From positions 1 through 49,480 of IMG/VR virus record IMGVR_UViG_3300021387_000130: DNA of 49,480 bases. One strand, 5' to 3'. The translations under genes were made by a program, and so were the position numbers. The notes under the pieces were generated by a model. That model was given only the letters and a program-made list of their open reading frames with translations, did no database searches and had not been told where the DNA came from. Every line of letters starts with the position of its first letter. Position 1 is the first letter of the stretch. The DNA is from a virus. Positions 1 to 49,480 of the stretch are shown piece after piece.

Positions 1-25
1 GTTTTTACGATACAATATCTCGCAC
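1..25. repeat. Terminal direct repeat, identical to 49456-49480. Interpreted as the assembly overlap of a circular or circularly permuted genome.
   Basis: gtttttacgatacaatatctcgcac occurs at both ends of the window. Gene order is continuous across the junction. Confidence 0.9.
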
Positions 26-38
26 ATATTGCATCCAC

Positions 39-1415
39 TTATATTATATCATATCCTAACTTTTTGTAAACAGATTCTCTCTTTTTTGCCCAACCTTTAT
101 ACATGCCGAAATCGTCAATAAAATCTATTACTATCCCCCGCTCTTTTCCTTCTGCTTTGCGACCCACCCTGCCAGAAGCCTGTTGTATTCGTGTCGGATC
201 TTTTTCAGGAGTGGCGAATACAACATACTTAAGATTCGGACAGTCGAGTCCTTCAGCGGCAAGTTGATATGTACAAAACACAGCATCCAATTCACAATTA
301 TTCAGCTTTCCTAATGCATCCTTGCGTTCCTCTTTTGCCGCCTTGCTGTGCCCCATAGATGACAAGCATCTGCTCTTCTTGGAATATGCTCTGTCCAAAC
401 GATCCAGATATTCTACCCTGTTTGCGAGAACAAGGATTGGTGAGTGTAGCTCCTCTATCGTCTCAAGCACAACCTTGAAACGTTTTTCGTTATGCACCAG
501 ATCATCCACAAGCCCTGCATAGTTTATTGTTCCATCTCCCGATAATGCCATATCCATGTCCGGCATATAATTAGTGTAAACAAGCTTAACTCTTACTTCA
601 CACGTTGTCTGTGAAACTTCAGCACGGGATACCTCGTGAATTATGCCGCCTAACAATGCAAACATACTTTTTTCGAGCCCATCTGCTCTTTTCGGTGTAG
701 CTGTTATTCCAAACTTGTATCTGCAGGAAAGATTGCTCAATACCTTGTAAAACTGCATGACCTTTGTCGGAGAGCCGATTGCTTTATGACATTCATCAAC
801 AATAATCACATCCCATGCATTCTTGTATTGAGTTAAATCAAGCTTGCACATCGTCTGTATTGTGGCGAAAGTTATTCCTGATCCTATATTAACTTTACCC
901 CCTGTGATCGTTCCATATAGGCTTGCAGAACAGTTAAGCACCGATTTAGCTCTGCCCAAGCTTTGATTGAGTAAATCCTGCGTATGCGTCAGCCACAGCG
1001 TCTTTCTGCCTAAGACAGACACAATCTCCAGTGCTGTCTGGGTTTTCCCTGCTCCACATGGCATCACGATAACCCCATTTTTCTGTTTCAGTGCCGCTCT
1101 TACAGCTTCTTCCTGATATGAATACATTTCTATGCCGGAAAAATACCTGACACTTTCATTATCGGTAAAGAGGCTGTAAAATCTGCTTTCAGGAAACTGT
1201 TTTCGAAGTTCATCGACACATCCGAATGGAATAATCAGGTCATTGCCATCCTTCTCATACAAGTAAATATGTTCCGGGATATTTCCGCACCACAGTCCCA
1301 TTCTTTGTTTTTTGTAATATTCAGGATTATCAAGCACCAGATTACTTTTGCACCATTCATTCAACTCTTTGCTTGCCTGTCTTGCGTATATCTTTGCTCC
1401 AACTTCAAAGTGCAT
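39..1415 (-). CDS. Superfamily-2 DNA helicase (DEAD/DEAH-box, Rad25/SNF2-like)
   Basis: Contains Walker A MPCGAGKTQTA, a DECH box, TATP and motif VI QQASGRVGR. The start is set at MHFEV, behind GAAGGTGG; the ORF track extends to 1433. Confidence 0.85.
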   Translation of the reverse strand: MHFEVGAKIYARQASKELNEWCKSNLVLDNPEYYKKQRMGLWCGNIPEHIYLYEKDGNDLIIPFGCVDELRKQFPESRFYSLFTDNESVRYFSGIEMYSYQEEAVRAALKQKNGVIVMPCGAGKTQTALEIVSVLGRKTLWLTHTQDLLNQSLGRAKSVLNCSASLYGTITGGKVNIGSGITFATIQTMCKLDLTQYKNAWDVIIVDECHKAIGSPTKVMQFYKVLSNLSCRYKFGITATPKRADGLEKSMFALLGGIIHEVSRAEVSQTTCEVRVKLVYTNYMPDMDMALSGDGTINYAGLVDDLVHNEKRFKVVLETIEELHSPILVLANRVEYLDRLDRAYSKKSRCLSSMGHSKAAKEERKDALGKLNNCELDAVFCTYQLAAEGLDCPNLKYVVFATPEKDPTRIQQASGRVGRKAEGKERGIVIDFIDDFGMYKGWAKKRESVYKKLGYDII

Positions 1416-5798: not shown

Positions 5799-6254
5799 TC
5801 AAGCGGTACGATCTACGGTCAACGAAGCGTTTCTCCGTACAAATATTGACGGAGTAGGTGTTACGCTTGCATCATCCTCTGTGGCGTCCACATAGGCGGC
5901 AGATATGGATACACAGCATCCACACGGAACCGTAATCGTAGCGGATGTATGAATATGCCATACATCCTCTGCCGCCGCAGGAGTCACAATCGCAACACTA
6001 TCAGGAATTGCTACACCATTCAGTGTGATGGCGAGAGCGATCGGTGTGATCGCCCCACCTTCCGGAATGGCGACATTCGCCTGAAGATCAACTTCGTATC
6101 TCGCAAATCTGTTTGATGTGTTGCCCTTCAAAGTAAGAACTCCAGTTGTAATAGGGATGACGCATCCCTTATTACACGGAATAGATACAATGTTGAACGG
6201 AATCGTATTGTTTAACGCAACATTCTGATCCGTGCTTGTAATATACTTTGCCAT
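5799..6254 (-). CDS. Beta-rich Cys-containing protein of unknown function
   Basis: 151 aa with Cys motifs IPCNKGC and VPCGCC. The composition resembles small jelly-roll fibre or exosporium-type subunits, but this is only a resemblance. Confidence 0.4.
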   Translation of the reverse strand: MAKYITSTDQNVALNNTIPFNIVSIPCNKGCVIPITTGVLTLKGNTSNRFARYEVDLQANVAIPEGGAITPIALAITLNGVAIPDSVAIVTPAAAEDVWHIHTSATITVPCGCCVSISAAYVDATEDDASVTPTPSIFVRRNASLTVDRTA

Positions 6255-6269
6255 GGCGCATCACCTCAT

Positions 6270-6691
6270 TCAGTTCACGAAACCGTTACCGCCGCATCCA
6301 CAGCCACACTGATTCTGACCGCACGTGAAGATCGGAGTGCGACCATACACAGGTGTAGTCGGGACAGGGCAGGAGTTCAGGCGGTTATACAGCGCATCAA
6401 CTTCGTTGGCAAAGCCCTGAGAAATAAAGGCATTCTGTGCCGTCTGAGACTCACGAAGAGCCGCCATATTGAGCTGATTCTGGAGTCCGACATTTTCTCT
6501 CTGAGCCGCCGCAAGCTGACCTTTAACACCGTCAAGCTCAAGAGCGCACAGCTTGTCGAGGATTGCCTGAGTGCCACGGTTCTGAGCATCGATGATGTCT
6601 CTCGTGTTCTGCATGGACTGAGTTCTGTCCGCGCAGTTCTCCGTGGCTATTGTGTACTTCAGATCAGCCGTGCCGAGTCTGTTTTCACAGC
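6270..6691 (-). CDS. Exon 2 of the intron-split Gly-rich membrane-protein gene
   Basis: The frame is open 26 codons upstream of the track's Met (..CENRLGTADLKYTIATENCADRTQS-MQNT..) with no start codon or RBS of its own. The boundary is good to about 3 nt. Confidence 0.6.
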
Positions 6692-7629
6692 CATTTTGTT
6701 ATCGTATAGGCTCTTTATCCTATACTTCTTATGGTTTCCCATAAGTTCAGACTATATCTTCACCCTCTCATAAAGAGTAGGGGTCGGGCACTCGTGTCGG
6801 GATTATTGGTAGTCGTCCTCACCCATTAGTCGTTGAGCCTTCCGTGGTACTTTCATCGACATTCCCACGGCTTGGGTGCTGATTGCCATGCATATTTTTA
6901 TGTTTATATTGTTTCTGAGGTTCTACAAAACAGATTTTTCCGTTTGGAGTCTTCCCTTTTTTGCTCCATGTAAGAATATTGCTATAAGAGATACCTAACT
7001 TCTCTTTCGCTTCTTTAATGGAATTATATGTAGTGTCGCCTATCGTTACTTTTCGCCTTTTCTGACCGTTTGTTTTTTCTGCAATATTAGGATCGCTCAT
7101 AGGATTAGAATCCTTCATTCGCTTTCTTTGGTTTTCAGACTTCATTACATTCTTTTCAGAATATTGATTTCTTAACTCGTCTGTCCACCAAGATTTCACT
7201 CCACCAGTTCCACCTTCGTAGATATTGCAGACACATTGTCCTATTTCTTTAAGTTCGTGTACTCTTATATATTCATAATCAAATGCATCTTGTTCATTTT
7301 CAAAATATTTGATTATTCTGCTTTCACAATCAAATCTTCTAACCATATCGTTAAAAAATCTGTTATGCTTTCGTACTTTGTAACGATTATTGCAACCTTT
7401 TCCTACGTAAATTATTTCTCCTGTTTCTTTAATGAACCATTCATAAACATAAAACATATTTACACCTCCGCATTGTTTTTATATATTATAACACAAAATC
7501 AATGCGAAAACAATATGTTTAGGTTTCCAGCAATTCACCCGATTGCCAGTGCGGATTACGCCGCACAACTGCCTACTGTGTATTTTGTAAATACAAGACT
7601 ATCTTTGGCTTTTTTGATAATCTTCTTTA
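6692..7629 (-). mobile_element. Group I intron carrying a GIY-YIG homing endonuclease ORF
   Basis: Minus-strand RNA hallmarks:
- AAGAUAUAGUC (6750-6760, J8/7-P7) with partner GACUA (6810-6814).
- P8 CCCUACUC/GAGAGGG.
- Hairpin CUUAUGG-GAAA-CCAUAAG (6728-6745).
- Hairpin GUAUAGG/CCUAUAC (6704-6725).
- A terminal G.
- Guide GGCAGUU (7567-7573), which pairs with the exon-1 end GACUGCU including a U-G wobble.
- CACAG (7576-7580), which pairs with exon-2 CUGUG. Confidence 0.7.
6819..7457 (-). CDS. GIY-YIG homing endonuclease (intron-encoded)
   Basis: N-terminal YVYEWFIKETGEIIYVGKG...NRY...R...N...E is the GIY-YIG module. NUMOD3-like repeats and a C-terminal HTH (YNSIKEAKEKLGISYSNILTW) follow. Confidence 0.85.
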   Translation of the reverse strand: MFYVYEWFIKETGEIIYVGKGCNNRYKVRKHNRFFNDMVRRFDCESRIIKYFENEQDAFDYEYIRVHELKEIGQCVCNIYEGGTGGVKSWWTDELRNQYSEKNVMKSENQRKRMKDSNPMSDPNIAEKTNGQKRRKVTIGDTTYNSIKEAKEKLGISYSNILTWSKKGKTPNGKICFVEPQKQYKHKNMHGNQHPSRGNVDESTTEGSTTNG

Positions 7630-8134
7630 AGCAGTCAGCAAACTGAGAACCAAGCTGATTAAAGCCCTGAGTCATAGCTGTCTGCCCTGCAAAGGCTGTC
7701 TGCATATTTGCCATCTGACGAGCATTTGCGGCAGTTTCAGCATTTGCAAACCCGGAATTGACTGTTGCATTAACCCCTGCAAAACCATTGCAAAGACTCT
7801 GCTGTACACCACCAAAACCATTGCAAAGCTGTGTAGAGATGTCACCAATGCTGTCTCTGATAGAGGTAACATTCGTGTTCATCATCTGGTCACGGAATCC
7901 ATCATTAATCTGATTGCTCTGGTTCATCCACGGATAAAGGACAGCACCATCTGCGGCAAAGTTTCCAACGCCGCCTCCAAAGCCTCCCCAACCGTTGTTG
8001 CCGATGAGAAGGAAAAGAAGCAAAACCCACCAACCGTCTGCACCGAAGCCGCTTCCGAAACCGTTGCCTGAGCCACCATACATGGGGGCAACTGGCATCA
8101 CCATTCCGTTTCCGCTTTCATCTGTAAGAGCCAT
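7630..8134 (-). CDS. Exon 1 of the intron-split Gly-rich membrane-protein gene (YjcZ-like N-terminal TM segment)
   Basis: GSGFGADGWWVLLLFLLIGNNGWGGFGGG resembles tiny YjcZ-type Gly-rich TM peptides. NGF/SGF repeats follow. The track ORF's last about 25 codons (to 7556) are read-through into the intron. Confidence 0.6.
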
Positions 8135-45395: not shown

Positions 45396-47681
45396 TCAAT
45401 CAATAAAGTCACTGAACTTATACTGTTTTGGCTCATTATGGGCAATAATTCGTATGTTTTTGTAGAAAATCCCAGAACTATTTCTGCCTTTTTCCGGTAA
45501 TTTCTTGCTGATTTCCGAGAAAAACTTCTTGGAGCTCATCTCATACTCGTTGTTTTCTTTCGCCCATCTAATATATGTCCTAAACAATTCTGTTGCAGGA
45601 ACTCTTTCGTCACAGTCATAATCAATCTCGATGCATTGCTCCAAGAACCCCGCAAGCAAATCCATTTCCTGCTTATATTCCTTAACTGCATCTGTGACGC
45701 ACTGCGGCTCTTCTATGCCGTATTTTCTCCATTTTATGCATCCCTCAACTGCCCACTTAAGTATCTGTGGGAATTCCTTTTTGAGTTTCTGTTTAAGATT
45801 TTTATCCACCTTTTCCTTCGGAATATTAACCTCAAACGGAATAAGCTTAATTCGCCTCCATATACCCAAATCAGTTCCTCTGATTACTGGTTTGTGGTTT
45901 GTGGCAATCCAGATTTTAAACTCGGGTGTGTACTCAAACTCATCACCATAGAGAAACCTACAAGTGACTTTTGAGCCACCTGTTAACTGTTTCAATAATC
46001 CCTCATTCAGTCTTACACCTTCTGTCGGTTCTTCACTGGTCACAAACCTTGCACCCTTCAGTCTGGCAACATCAGAATTTGCGCTGTCACTTCCCCACTT
46101 TTTCATCATGATCGTTTCCGGCTGAGTGTTTGCAGAATACCCTCCAAGTAAATCAGCCATTGTATCCAGAAAAGTTGATTTACCGTTGTTGCCTATACCA
46201 TAAAGAAAATAAGCGCACTGCTCAGCGGTACTGCCTGTCAGGGAATAGCCCACACAGCGCTGAATGTATTCCTGCAGTTTTGCATCGCCATTCGTCACAT
46301 CCTGCAGAAATGAAAGCCATAGCTCAGGTTGTTTTCCCGAAGTATCATAATCAGCATTGCACATCTTAGTCATCAGAAAATTGCTGTCGTGTGGGATTAA
46401 CTCACCGTTTCGCAGATTGACTATGCCGTTCTTGCAGTTTATATAATCCACATAAGAGTCAAGCTCATCCTGCATGATTGGTATTCCCGGAAGATGCTGA
46501 CACTCTTTGATCATCGCTTCCTTACCTTTGGAGCTCGCTGTCTTAATCGACCATTTTAAAAGGTCTACTTGAGTTTTTTCATCCTCTTCCATGATCGCTT
46601 CTTTTTTGATGTCATCACATATCATATCAGCAAGCTTTTTGACTTCGCCGGAGTTGTCAGCTTCCCAAACTTTACCATCCCAGAAAAACCATTTCTTGCG
46701 ATTGTAGGAATATCGAATGATCGTTCCGAACCTGTCCTGCAGTCTGTGAGCGTTTCCGGTATCGGTCATGTCATAGCGCTTCTTCTGTTCAACTCCTACC
46801 TTCCCATCACCGAAAAGAGCGAACGCCAATTCCTTATCATCGTCATAACGTTTCGGCTCGTATACATCAACACAATTAATGCAAGCTTTGCTTATGGTTA
46901 TCGCTCCATAAGTTGTTTCTCCTCTTTTCTGATCCCATTTCGGACGCATCAATCCGCTCGTTCGAAATATCCTGTCCATCTGCGCTTCATTGCGCTGTGT
47001 CCAAAAGGCAAGCTGATTACATAAAGCGAGATCGGCCTCAGACTGCGAAGAATATACGCCCTGCCAGTTTCCCTGATACAACATATTAAAAAGATACCCA
47101 CTTTTACAGGTTCTGGCTTTATCAATCACCTCCTGATCGTCCATATTGACAACTTCTACCCGCTGTCTGTTAACAACCTTCTGGCTATCTGAACTCAGAT
47201 ACTTTTCATGCAGTGGTTTAATACGTTCAGTGCATTCTTCAATAGTAAGATAGTTAGGATTGTACACATTGCCTGTGCAAATAAAGTACCTGCCGGAGCT
47301 GTACATCTCAACGTTTCCTCTGCGTCTTGCTCCCTTTGGAAGCTCTCCCCTGCAGATAATGTGGATGCCGTTGCCGCTCTTGGAATACTCTGCATAGCTC
47401 TGGAGTGTATCCACAAATTCATCGCAGAAATCAAGATCATCGGAGCAATGATCAAGATCAACTCCAAAGTATCCATTGGCAAACATGAAACCCACACCAT
47501 CAAAGTGATATTTATCGCAAGCCTCCACAGCCTGTTCAAAGCTTGCCCAAGTGCTTGAGTCATTTGACTTTGCACTTCGCCCGGTATATGGGTTTTTGGG
47601 TATTTTATCCGCTCCGCTCCAACATACCCACTGAGGAACATCTTGTAATTCCTTAGGGATATTTTCAATTCTTGTGACCAT
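45396..47681 (-). CDS. Bifunctional primase-polymerase / D5-type SF3 helicase
   Basis: The N-terminal prim-pol domain has GVGFMFANGYFGVDLDHC. The C-terminal P4/D5 helicase has Walker A YGIGNNGKST. The start is at MVTRIEN. Confidence 0.85.
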   Translation of the reverse strand: MVTRIENIPKELQDVPQWVCWSGADKIPKNPYTGRSAKSNDSSTWASFEQAVEACDKYHFDGVGFMFANGYFGVDLDHCSDDLDFCDEFVDTLQSYAEYSKSGNGIHIICRGELPKGARRRGNVEMYSSGRYFICTGNVYNPNYLTIEECTERIKPLHEKYLSSDSQKVVNRQRVEVVNMDDQEVIDKARTCKSGYLFNMLYQGNWQGVYSSQSEADLALCNQLAFWTQRNEAQMDRIFRTSGLMRPKWDQKRGETTYGAITISKACINCVDVYEPKRYDDDKELAFALFGDGKVGVEQKKRYDMTDTGNAHRLQDRFGTIIRYSYNRKKWFFWDGKVWEADNSGEVKKLADMICDDIKKEAIMEEDEKTQVDLLKWSIKTASSKGKEAMIKECQHLPGIPIMQDELDSYVDYINCKNGIVNLRNGELIPHDSNFLMTKMCNADYDTSGKQPELWLSFLQDVTNGDAKLQEYIQRCVGYSLTGSTAEQCAYFLYGIGNNGKSTFLDTMADLLGGYSANTQPETIMMKKWGSDSANSDVARLKGARFVTSEEPTEGVRLNEGLLKQLTGGSKVTCRFLYGDEFEYTPEFKIWIATNHKPVIRGTDLGIWRRIKLIPFEVNIPKEKVDKNLKQKLKKEFPQILKWAVEGCIKWRKYGIEEPQCVTDAVKEYKQEMDLLAGFLEQCIEIDYDCDERVPATELFRTYIRWAKENNEYEMSSKKFFSEISKKLPEKGRNSSGIFYKNIRIIAHNEPKQYKFSDFID

Positions 47682-47835
47682 TTTGCACCCTCTTGATTTC
47701 TTCATCAGAAATGAACCACCTGTTACTCACATCATATTTTACTGCCTTTAATTTTCCAGTTTTAATCCATTCTCTTACTGTTCTTACTTTGATACCAAGC
47801 AGTTCGCTTGTCTGCCTTACGCTGTAATAACTCAT
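47665..47835 (-). CDS. Excisionase/MerR-type HTH DNA-binding protein (56 aa), below the ORF-track cutoff
   Basis: AAGGAGGG lies 6 nt upstream of the ATG. Translation: MSYYSVRQTSELLGIKVRTVREWIKTGKLKAVKYDVSNRWFISDEEIKRVQNGHKN. Confidence 0.6.
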   Translation of the reverse strand: MSYYSVRQTSELLGIKVRTVREWIKTGKLKAVKYDVSNRWFISDEEIKRVQNGHKN

Positions 47836-48061
47836 TAAATCCCTCCTTAAAATTTATCCATCATGTATTTTATTAACGCTTCTGATCTTCCGCTTCCGAG
47901 CTTCATGTCTACAAGCTCATCGAACGCTTTTTTCTTGTAAGCACGATACTCACTTCCGTTCCACTTTAATATTATATTTGTGCCGGAATCAGTAACAAAA
48001 TCTATATTCTTTTGCTCTTTTAAATTGCCTTTATTTATATTTCAGACCCCCTTTCTTATCA

Positions 48062-48090
48062 ATGATACTATATATGTAAATATATGTCAA
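48062..48090 (-). promoter_or_regulatory. Sigma-A-type promoter (family member, weaker -10)
   Basis: Minus strand reads TAATATATTGACA-17 nt-TATCAT. The -35 overlaps the stop codon of the helicase remnant. Confidence 0.5.
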
Positions 48091-48239
48091 TATATTACTG
48101 TATAACCAAGCTTTTTGTAATACCCCTTGCGCTTCTTTGCCCATCCGTTATACATCCCAAAGTCATCGATGAAATCGATTACTGTTCCAAATTCTTTGCC
48201 CTCTGCTTTTCGCCCAACTCTTCCTGCTGACTGAGCCAT
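48087..48239 (-). pseudogene. Displaced remnant of a helicase 3' end (50 codons, from motif VI to the stop)
   Basis: MAQSAGRVGRKAEGKEFGTVIDFIDDFGMYNGWAKKRKGYYKKLGYTVIY aligns with the C-terminus of 39..1415 (QQASGRVGRKAEGKERGIVIDFIDDFGMYKGWAKKRESVYKKLGYDII). By eye, identity is roughly 80 percent at the amino-acid level and about 70 percent at the nucleotide level. Confidence 0.8.
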
Positions 48240-48676
48240 CAATCATTTATCGGTTCTTCATCATCGAGTATCCTTGCTATATTATCAGCATTCATAAATG
48301 CTCTCATTATCGGAGTTGGCTTTTTTCTACATTTATCCATATTCCACTTTGCAGGTTTTATCATTGAAACACCGTCTTCTTCAATCATTAAAACTCCACT
48401 ATGCTCCATACCACACAAATACAAATATCCTATTGTTTGACATAAAAGATTTCGTGGACAAGCAACATATCCATATTCAAAGTTTTCCTGATTTAATCCA
48501 TTACCAGATTTCAAATCCCCAATACTTGATTTTATTTCTATGCCATAAACCCCATCTTGCGTTCCTAAATCAATGCGCCCTTTGCCAACCTTTAGTTCAG
48601 GCACAAATGGAATATCCTTAAAAACTTTCATTAAACCATTGGAATAATATCGTTGAAAATCACTCCTTATAATCAT
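48239..48676 (-). CDS. MmcB-like PD-(D/E)xK nuclease-fold protein
   Basis: GRIDLGTQDGVYGIEIKSSIGDL gives the D...ExK pattern. The start at MIIRSDF follows AAAGGAG. Confidence 0.5.
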   Translation of the reverse strand: MIIRSDFQRYYSNGLMKVFKDIPFVPELKVGKGRIDLGTQDGVYGIEIKSSIGDLKSGNGLNQENFEYGYVACPRNLLCQTIGYLYLCGMEHSGVLMIEEDGVSMIKPAKWNMDKCRKKPTPIMRAFMNADNIARILDDEEPIND

Positions 48677-48678
48677 CC

Positions 48679-49380
48679 TTAACTCCTTTCTGCATATTGC
48701 CATTTTTGCTTTTTTAATGTTCCGTTACAGTGTCGTATTATTGTTGACCTATTAAGACCAGTATCTTCACAAGCCGCTTTTATTGATGGATAAACAACGC
48801 CTGTCTGCATATTTTCAACAGGATGATATTTTGCTTCGCTTGCTTTTTGAATAGAATATTCAGATGGTTTCCTTCCCTTTAATTTTTGAGATGCTTTTGC
48901 TCTCGCCTCTGGAGAATGCATAGCATTGTTTCCATTAGCAAAAGACTTTTTTTGAGCAATACTCATGTTGTGTTTCTCTTTTTCCGTTCTTTTTCGCTCT
49001 TTTTGGAATACAGATATTTTCTTTTTTGCTTCTTCAGACATTATCTTACCAAGATTGGCTTGTCTTAATTTTCCTTTTGTTTCTTCAGAGCAAATTTTGT
49101 TATCGATACCGCCTAAAGAAATATTATATCCATATTTACGATCGGCAGAATTATATTTTTGTATTAATTCTTTTTCCATTTTGGATGCTTCATCAATAGT
49201 TAATCCTTCTGCCACTATTTCATGAATAATATTATTCCATCCATATTTTTTAATCGCATTTTTCATATATGGATTTCTATAATTGCCACCATTTGAACCC
49301 CAACGCAATTTTGGTTTCCAACTTGTAACTCCAATATATTTTTTCCCATTAGGGAAAGTATGAATATAAACACTATACAT
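48679..49380 (-). CDS. GIY-YIG homing endonuclease (free-standing) with NUMOD3 repeats and a C-terminal HTH
   Basis: YSVYIHTFPNGKKYIGVTS...R...N...E...YNISLGG, then SEETKGKLRQANLGK / SEEAKKKIS. No Shine-Dalgarno sequence was seen upstream. Confidence 0.85.
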   Translation of the reverse strand: MYSVYIHTFPNGKKYIGVTSWKPKLRWGSNGGNYRNPYMKNAIKKYGWNNIIHEIVAEGLTIDEASKMEKELIQKYNSADRKYGYNISLGGIDNKICSEETKGKLRQANLGKIMSEEAKKKISVFQKERKRTEKEKHNMSIAQKKSFANGNNAMHSPEARAKASQKLKGRKPSEYSIQKASEAKYHPVENMQTGVVYPSIKAACEDTGLNRSTIIRHCNGTLKKQKWQYAERS

Positions 49381-49389
49381 ATTTTTATT

Positions 49390-49436
49390 AATAAAAATCC
49401 CTGTTAAAAGATAGTGCGAGTATCTCCTAACAGGGA
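49390..49436 (-). terminator. Hairpin/terminator after the helicase gene (across the circular junction)
   Basis: A 9-bp stem UCCCUGUUA/UAACAGGGA with a 21-nt loop is followed by UUUUUAUU. A second 10-bp inverted repeat, gatgcaatat (49443-49452) / atattgcatc (26-35), spans the junction. Confidence 0.45.
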
Positions 49437-49455
49437 CTTATAGATGCAATATGAA

Positions 49456-49480
49456 GTTTTTACGATACAATATCTCGCAC
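49456..49480. repeat. Terminal direct repeat (copy of 1-25)
   Basis: Identical 25-mer at both ends of the window. Confidence 0.9.

Follow-up and report, generated by a model that had tools for sequence, protein, structure and literature searches.

A probable GIY-YIG homing cassette in a bacteriophage helicase gene, with the displaced end of that gene beside it

How does a viral genome come to carry a conserved helicase gene followed, beyond two other genes, by a second copy of that gene's end? The question is raised by the IMG/VR virus record IMGVR_UViG_3300021387_000130 (positions 1 to 49,480; the whole stretch of 49,480 nucleotides (nt) that was analysed is called the window below), in which an intact superfamily 2 (SF2) helicase gene is followed by a GIY-YIG homing endonuclease gene (HEG), a further open reading frame (ORF) termed cargo, and a second coding sequence for the helicase C-terminus, termed the remnant. 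In our reading, to which we give a probability of about 75%, a free-standing GIY-YIG homing cassette has lodged in the 3' part of the helicase gene and displaced its resident end. The assembly of the window is circular, the first 25 nt being equal to the last 25 (49456-49480 repeats 1-25), so that gene order on the minus strand may be read across the junction: helicase, 114-nt spacer, GIY-YIG HEG, 145-residue cargo ORF, helicase C-terminus copy, about 250 nt, a helix-turn-helix (HTH) gene of the HTH_17 type, and a primase-polymerase/D5-type gene. The order around this junction had been proposed in a first-pass annotation made from the letters alone, and the terminal repeat and the ORF list bear it out. 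The GC content of the cassette is 32.7%, against 43.5% for the genome.

The intact UvsW-like helicase (39..1415 in the ORF list; this and all other features of the window given below lie on the minus strand) comprises 458 residues, or 464 if an upstream ATG at 1433 is used, and matches the Pfam families ResIII (7e-28), Helicase_C (2e-13) and DEAD. Its sequence is identical to that of P0001 in our protein set. The nearest helicases of isolate phages, annotated as helicase or UvsW, are only about 27% identical (tblastn), and megablast of both window ends against isolate phages gave no match; lacking a close isolate phage, the comparison has no annotated relative to use. At E<=1e-50, 4,633 metagenomic homologues of the helicase were found, and related loci, designated L with a number, are compared with the window in what follows.

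The remnant (48087..48242) consists of 50 codons plus a stop and starts just before helicase motif VI, its 5' edge lying 2-3 codons ahead of the Q of the motif (QxxGRxxR). The ORF (51 residues) aligns with helicase residues 416-464 at 37 identities out of 49 (76%, BLASTP E 1e-24), and 129 codon-aligned nt are 70% identical between the two copies. The similarity is thus significant at both levels, in agreement with the initial claim of a second helicase C-terminus beginning at motif VI; estimated by eye at about 80% for amino acids and about 70% for nucleotides, it stands at the latter figure and falls short of the former. The ATG of the remnant overlaps the stop codon of the cargo ORF (TGATG). 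A MAFFT match that seemed to prolong the homology into the tail of the cargo ORF (TGAAGAACCGA) was rejected, as this 'EEPIND' tail belongs to the cargo ORF of the 98% identical P0121; a similar tail occurs in the cargo homologue P0123. At its other end, the remnant terminates within a promoter-like site, TTGACA-17-TATCAT (48062..48090, read 48090->48062; 11/12 in a pattern scan and the best of the region), its stop codon TGA falling inside the TTGACA -35 box, as had been noticed at the outset. The box at the helicase stop, TATTGACATA, is kept in L065, L066, L067, L075 and L157, where it holds or abuts the stop codon.

Which of the two ends is the resident one? The closest cassette-free relatives are L065/L066 and L067, whose helicases are 73-75% identical to that of the window and whose gene order is helicase, an ORF of 60-73 residues, HTH, primase. 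In these genomes, the helicase runs directly into the conserved TTGACA box, as the first-pass annotation had expected of phages lacking the cassette, and the helicase 3' region of the L065/L067 type reads …ACAACGGTCATGCAGGCGGCAGGGCGC…. The remnant is collinear with L065, L066 and L067 from motif VI through the gene end, the stop/TTGACA box, the small ORF and the HTH gene, which places it where the resident helicase end belongs. Both flanks are nearest to the same relatives, with identities to L065-L067 of 69-72% for the upstream Hjc-like gene, 73-75% for the helicase body, 73-74% for the HTH gene and 74-75% for the primase gene. The last 84 residues of the intact helicase change partner: they are 94% identical to those of L063, whose helicase body is only 72% identical. 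At the nucleotide level, the remnant is 74% identical to L065, 71% to L067 and 75% to L003, and the intact 3' end is 67% identical to L065, 68% to L067 and 96% to L063; the margin by which the remnant lies closer to L065 and L067 is small, these closest element-free relatives being themselves only 73-75% identical in the helicase. The remnant is therefore the original end of the resident gene and the intact 3' end is foreign, as had been suspected from the position of the stop codon. The duplication does not stem from a recent copying within the genome either, another early claim that holds, since the remnant is 70% identical to the intact copy and 74-75% identical to other phages.

The foreign tract (39..281, with motif VI at about 170-190) is linked to the HEG and has been exchanged horizontally. 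Its last 220-240 nt or so are about 95% identical to the HEG-bearing L063. Identity between the window and L063, taken in windows of 60 nt, is 0.5-0.75 in the helicase body and 0.92-1.0 from about position 281 to about 60; it is then about 0.8 in the spacer and the HEG, reaches 0.95-0.98 at 48837-48760 and is random beyond 48720. With a 3' tract of about 95% beside a body of about 72%, both relative to a HEG-bearing locus, the functional 3' end moves with the HEG. The step of identity to L063 and the HEG-linked spacer also uphold the first-pass view that the cassette brought its own helicase 3' end. Compared with L005, which has the HEG and neither cargo nor remnant, identity rises from about 0.6 to 0.8-0.9 at about position 72, i.e. 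in the last 40 nt of the helicase, and stays there through the spacer into the HEG. In an independent pair, L090 and L163, the motif VI codons ACA GGA AGG mark the exact point at which identity climbs from about 0.5 to over 0.8, and it reaches 0.95 in the spacer. The spacer and HEG of the window are common to L005, L063 and others. Furthermore, helicase alleles adjacent to a HEG usually read I-(Q/E)-Q-(A/S)-x-G before GRVGR, and those of HEG-less loci V-(M/T/I/V)-Q-…; at position -4 relative to the motif VI glycine, Q or E is found in 8 of 11 loci that adjoin a HEG versus 3 of 59 HEG-less ones (Fisher 2.5e-6, a value that ignores shared ancestry). Applied as a predictor of the HEG to three unseen helicases, this signature was right for P0009 (L157) and P0039 (L159) and wrong for P0034 (L158).

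Four further phages have stranded helicase ends behind a HEG of the same family. In L075, a GIY-YIG HEG of a different subtype is followed by the same cargo ORF (98% amino-acid identity) and by a remnant of 50 codons with the same start codon as in the window. In L090, the HEG is followed by 2.7 kb of other ORFs and then by a remnant reading '…VMQAAGRVGRK…'; in L063, by an unrelated nuclease-like ORF of 221 residues and a remnant that starts about 15 codons later; and in L157, by an IS110 transposase, other ORFs and the last 14 helicase codons, after which comes the TTGAC box again. The remnant of L090 begins exactly at GTC ATG CAA GCC GCA GG, those of the window and L075 within one codon of this point, and no remnant reaches upstream of the V/M codon before motif VI. 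Two recombination boundaries also fall on motif VI codons, one between L090 and L163 and the other between the window and L075, whose identity drops to about 65% at the GRVGR codons past the first 20 nt or so of the remnant. Two independent junctions and two boundaries at the start of motif VI would place the predicted double-strand break there, in line with the early proposal that the endonuclease target lies in the motif VI coding sequence. The shorter remnants of L063 and L157 fit a resection of the broken end. As separate observations, the interval between HEG and remnant in L090 includes an ORF of 188 residues (6142-6708) with an N-terminus that looks GIY-YIG-like by eye, and a second HTH_17-like gene (7471-7653), which is a duplicate of the resident module.

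At the helicase position, the HEG is present in the window, L005, L063, L075, L090, L157, L159, L161 and L163, and absent from L065-L067, L158 and about 55 other loci. This is a presence/absence polymorphism at a single position, with flanks that are co-inherited, as the identity steps indicate. Scanning Joint Genome Institute (JGI) metagenomes with a profile of the HEG mostly returned unrelated contexts; only L161-L163 were informative, none of them with a new remnant. The gene itself (48679..49380) encodes 233 residues in a probable I-TevI-like layout, with a GIY-YIG domain and a putative DNA-binding tail of NUMOD3-type linker and C-terminal HTH. It matches Pfam GIY-YIG PF01541 at 26.5 bits (cut-off 22.6) and phrog_314 'homing endonuclease' at 3.5e-41; TIGR01453 covers its full length at 41 bits, under the 56-bit cut-off. 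Residues Y5, Y15, G17, R26, E69 and N86 are invariant in an alignment of seven family members, and the close homologues in L063 and L075 show matches to NUMOD3 and I-HmuI_NUMOD-like/HTH domains. The start of the gene reads TTAATAAAAATATG, with no visible Shine-Dalgarno (SD) sequence, as reported initially; six other loci have a GAGGTA SD before the HEG start, where the window (49381-49395) reads TTAATAAAAAT instead. These HEGs are mosaic: those of the window and L075 share 48% of their amino acids, yet their last 15 codons match nearly perfectly, and relative to L063 a patch of 95-98% nucleotide identity in the C-terminal DNA-binding part stands in a gene otherwise about 80% identical. The mosaic regions are 48679-48840 in the window, 827-892 in L075 and 2420-2500 in L063.

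The helicase gene ends in TAA and the HEG starts 114 nt downstream, past a terminator-like hairpin, so that the HEG is not fused to it in phase. This hairpin (49395..49439, read 49439->49395), found by pattern scan, has 19 pairs followed by a T-run and substantiates the hairpin or terminator that had been placed between helicase and endonuclease; four of its pairs are altered on both sides between HEG subtypes. It forms part of a conserved two-hairpin element of about 115 nt, split in the window by the circular junction into a 5' part with hairpin 1 (1..38, from a seven-locus alignment) and a 3' part with the rest of hairpin 1, hairpin 2 and a U-run (49381..49455, from the alignment, its consensus fold and a covariance model). 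Five pairs of the element are altered on both sides between loci, and the copy of the window, contiguous in L060 (3340-3458), has a fold with an energy of -44.6 kcal/mol (z -7.6). The hairpins could form a kissing interaction, as hairpin 1 contains an invariant GUGCGAG to which an invariant CUCGCAC in the hairpin 2 loop is exactly complementary. No Rfam family matches the spacer. According to the covariance model, the element also follows the HEG-less helicases of L104 and L118 and is found in L107, L126 and L162, and, in the unrelated context of L225, it precedes a related HEG. A group I or II intron or a ribozyme was looked for and set aside, as no Rfam intron family occurs in L060 (2500-5400), L063, L005 or L090. 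An intein or intron at the insertion was likewise discarded: the helicase ORF is complete without splicing, and the inteins of the family sit at motifs I and II.

The cargo ORF (48239..48676, 145 residues, with a strong AGGAG SD) belongs to a rare, phage-specific family with only seven homologues in 5.8 billion proteins, and was searched for in IMG/VR without a match. The homologues with usable genomic context are all at the same spot: directly after the helicase in L069-L071, L072 and L074, with neither HEG nor remnant; after an HNH endonuclease in L076; and after the GIY-YIG HEG in L075. The cargo ORF is an independent, exchangeable module, other phages having it directly after the helicase without HEG or remnant. 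A block of about 99% identity to L075 (48222..48725) takes in the final 15 codons of the HEG, the cargo ORF and the remnant up to about its seventh codon, and identity collapses on both sides of it; the window and L075 thus share one cargo/remnant junction on two different resident ends. With regard to function, residues D36, E47 and K49 are invariant in eight sequences, and a low-confidence AlphaFold model (mean predicted local distance difference test score, pLDDT, 62) has the order alpha-beta-beta-beta-alpha-beta, so that a PD-(D/E)xK-type fold is possible and the protein is a putative member of that type. The more specific assignment to an MmcB-like PD-(D/E)xK family (PF06319), made in the first-pass annotation, found no backing. 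There was no match in NCBIfam and no relevant one among PDB sequences; Pfam at E<=5 returned nothing save SfsA at 0.11 in two of eight members; and the best Foldseek hit of the pLDDT-62 model, 3dnx, was not significant (E 0.21, template-modelling score 0.20).

From the duplication, the resident copy, the mosaic boundaries, the recurrence and the empty sites, we infer where cleavage takes place, that the HEG is active and how the break is repaired, as follows. The travelling unit would consist of a cleavage-resistant helicase 3' end (about the last 240 nt), the terminator-like spacer of about 115 nt, the HEG and, here, the cargo ORF. In a mixed infection, the endonuclease would cut HEG-less helicase alleles at the start of motif VI (…ACN ACN GTN ATG CAG GCN GCA GG…). 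The left end of the break would then recombine with the homologous helicase body of the HEG-bearing genome and copy the donor's 3' end, spacer, HEG and cargo. Repair on this side would co-convert a variable length of the 3' end, which would explain boundaries at about 281, at about 72 and at motif VI. The right end, starting from motif VI, would be attached behind the cargo, through illegitimate joining or through pairing with a remnant that the donor already had. In this way, the 3' end native to the recipient would survive, promoter included, as a non-functional duplicate, and the helicase would stay functional because the cassette supplies the missing end. We further hypothesise that, in later transfers, the remnant serves as a right-hand homology arm, which would explain why the window and L075 have the same junction and different remnants. 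More tentatively, the stranded end might be a built-in downstream homology arm of a self-propagating unit made up of gene end, spacer, HEG, cargo and a truncated copy of the target.

Several observations weigh against this account of a displaced resident end. The window is more similar to L063 in the helicase 3' tract (about 95%) than in the HEG (about 80%), and the last exchange is consequently not accounted for by a whole cassette moving in one simple step. Exceptions to the allele signature occur in L087, L124, L158 and L163, and the statistic behind it takes no account of shared ancestry. Two junctions lie off motif VI, 15 codons further on in L063 and at the last 14 codons in L157. The HEG-bearing loci L005, L159, L162 and L163 lack a remnant, and from such HEG-only loci clean two-sided homologous repair is evidently the commoner outcome. 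No cassette-free variant of the window phage itself was found, three other assemblies of it being 100% identical. Finally, the HEG of the window may be weakly translated or at the start of its decay, since its SD is lost.

Other explanations have to be set against the same data. The two helicase ends could derive from a single illegitimate crossover between co-infecting genomes, with a HEG-bearing parent on the left and a HEG-less parent, cut at motif VI, from the remnant rightwards. Such an event would suit L090, where the 2.7-2.8 kb between HEG and remnant includes a second HTH_17 gene and a donor 'helicase-end-to-HTH' module seems to stand in tandem with the resident one, and it agrees with the finding that remnants occur only where extra DNA follows the HEG. 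In the window, however, L065-L067 are equally close to both flanks, the change of partner is confined to the last 84 residues of the helicase, and the step against L063 at about 281 sets a left boundary inside the helicase. A single crossover is thus viable at certain loci, L090 among them, but suits the window less and, as a general explanation, appears unlikely. It is likewise improbable that the second ORF, i.e. the cargo of the window or the nuclease-like protein of 221 residues in L063, made the motif VI junction, with the GIY-YIG HEG as an independent neighbour in a hotspot. The gene abutting the remnant is indeed nuclease-like in the window, L075 and L063, the window and L075 share just one block of about 99% identity, made up of the cargo ORF and the junctions on either side of it, the cargo homologue of L076 adjoins an HNH endonuclease, and there are HEG-only loci without a remnant. 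Yet cargo homologues follow intact helicases directly and leave no remnant in L069-L072 and L074, the remnants of L090 and L157 have no such ORF adjoining them, and the Pfam, PDB sequence and Foldseek searches gave the cargo no nuclease family or fold. Moreover, the motif VI boundary between L090 and L163 takes in only the helicase end, the spacer and the GIY-YIG HEG.

That the 50-codon ORF has been kept as a functional small gene, for instance as a translationally coupled C-terminal peptide of the helicase, is very unlikely. Its ATG overlaps the cargo stop (TGATG), its frame runs uninterrupted to the natural stop codon in L075, L090 and the window, and nearly all residues conserved in the family are retained; but conservation of this kind is explicable by recent capture from functional genes. 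The ORF has no SD, and its ATG is ATA in L075. Remnants range from 14 to about 50 codons, some of them in the frames of other ORFs (L063, L157), and in L090 only about the last 50 of the 68 residues of the remnant ORF are helicase-derived. No independent small-gene family was found apart from helicase ends, a point on which the first-pass annotation had staked its reading. Hardly credible is an ancient event in which the genome duplicated the 3' end of its own helicase in tandem, the copies diverged and endonuclease genes later arrived between them. The two copies have the same orientation and are both still open reading frames, but the intact one is 96% identical in nucleotides to L063 and only 70% to the remnant, which in turn is as close or closer to other phages (74-75%). 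The intact stop is followed by the HEG-linked spacer and the remnant by the resident promoter region, and in L075 a different remnant adjoins an identical cargo junction. The homing cassette with a displaced resident end therefore remains our preferred reading.

How does such a locus compare with known systems? In T4-type phages, free-standing GIY-YIG and HNH endonucleases (Seg, Mob) carry out 'intronless homing' with co-conversion or marker exclusion, and the window resembles them in its intergenic I-TevI-like GIY-YIG gene beside an essential gene of DNA metabolism, its presence/absence polymorphism and its co-inherited flanks. To our knowledge, the T4 cases swap flanking markers cleanly, and a displaced duplicate of the target gene's end forms no part of their description. 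In Aeromonas phage Aeh1, mobE splits nrdA ('genes in pieces'), so that here too a free-standing HEG lies within the coding region of an essential phage gene whose function is kept. The two halves of nrdA are both functional and reassemble as protein, whereas in the window the downstream piece is redundant and the cassette brings a full end. Orphan modules of polymorphic toxin loci, to which the first-pass annotation likened the remnant, are also displaced 3' fragments lying downstream and homologous at their 5' edge to the active gene. They are functional alternatives paired with immunity genes for switching, unlike the remnant, a conserved housekeeping-enzyme end that an endonuclease cassette has left stranded. 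The remnant has no immunity gene and is followed by a promoter, a small ORF and an HTH gene, and the analogy gives way to the better-fitting one with mitochondrial gene hybrids drawn below.

In ICP1 and other phages, nuclease genes have been described where genetic exchange has its boundaries (PMC10448857), and that work places HEGs at sharp steps of nucleotide identity comparable to those of the window at about 281, at about 72, at 48725 and at 48222. When the paper was searched by terms, no duplicated flanking gene end came up; it mentions duplications within HEG DNA-binding domains. The closest counterpart is provided by the mobile ORF (mORF) 'gene hybrids' of fungal mitochondria, first identified in atp6 of Allomyces macrogynus and later in atp6, atp9, cox2 and nad3 of Glomus sp., atp9 of Rhizopus and cox2 of Mortierella (PMC3630166). 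They consist, like the phage locus, of a core gene, a foreign in-frame C-terminal segment, an endonuclease ORF and the native C-terminal segment; the native copy resembles element-free relatives, the inserted one is divergent, and the element is absent from close relatives. The mitochondrial architecture is documented with a biochemically active endonuclease (PMC3630166). The phage case differs in its setting, a double-stranded DNA phage with a replication or recombination helicase as target. In mitochondria, in-phase fusion of the endonuclease is frequent, if not universal; the phage HEG is not fused in frame, and a structured, terminator-like spacer stands between the two genes. The phage cassette carries exchangeable cargo, and the resident promoter of the operon downstream is retained in its remnant. 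A full-text literature search of a limited library returned no report, for phages, of a gene end duplicated and displaced by a HEG. The phage case is of the same kind as endonuclease-mediated gene-end replacement in mitochondria.

Downstream of the remnant, the resident context continues with the excisionase-like HTH_17 gene (47665..47835; Pfam HTH_17 5.7e-12) and the gene of a primase-polymerase or D5-like helicase (45396..47705; Pfam D5_N, NrS1-1_pol-like_HBD and DUF5906). Between the promoter-like site and the HTH gene lies a small ORF (47847..48041), which the alignment identifies as a homologue of the ORFs of 60-84 residues that follow the helicase in L065, L067 and L075. The ORF begins immediately behind a TGA, lacks any ATG, GTG or TTG close to the 5' end, and contains an in-frame ATA located 7 nt past an SD-like GGGGGT run; it is either a pseudogene or the user of an unusual start. 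Across more than 60 related loci (L001-L160), the gap between helicase stop and primase start may be as short as 5 nt or as long as 3.6 kb and varies greatly in content, and this interval is a hypervariable cargo hotspot in the phage family of the window. In L157 (5443-6702 and 8220-8936), for example, the gap also holds an IS110-family transposase on the opposite strand, and the primase gene is immediately preceded by a second GIY-YIG HEG. Inteins of 317-346 residues occur in the same helicase family, at motif I with a LAGLIDADG domain (P0047 and P0094, after window helicase residue 130, GK|T) and at motif II (P0029, P0053 and P0067, after residue 214, DE|CH). In this family, three different selfish elements, two inteins and one HEG cassette, thus occupy the sequences that encode motifs I, II and VI.

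The locus extends endonuclease-mediated gene-end replacement from fungal mitochondria to bacteriophages, in a phage family with thousands of metagenomic members. The stranded ends are natural footprints, and their shared upstream limit, together with the two recombination boundaries, predicts a target, accurate to a few nucleotides, at the point where motif VI begins. Short ORFs beside HEGs can be displaced gene ends and not genes, and phylogenies of the helicase in this phage family need to be built with the HEG-linked 3' tract removed. If the stranded end does act as a homology arm, the unit could home into any helicase allele by means of homology on both sides, in the manner of an intron without splicing. 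Cargo would then be swappable between elements by recombination between the conserved 3' end of the HEG and the remnant, and the cargo block of about 99% identity in the window and L075, bounded by just these two sequences, would be the trace of such a swap.

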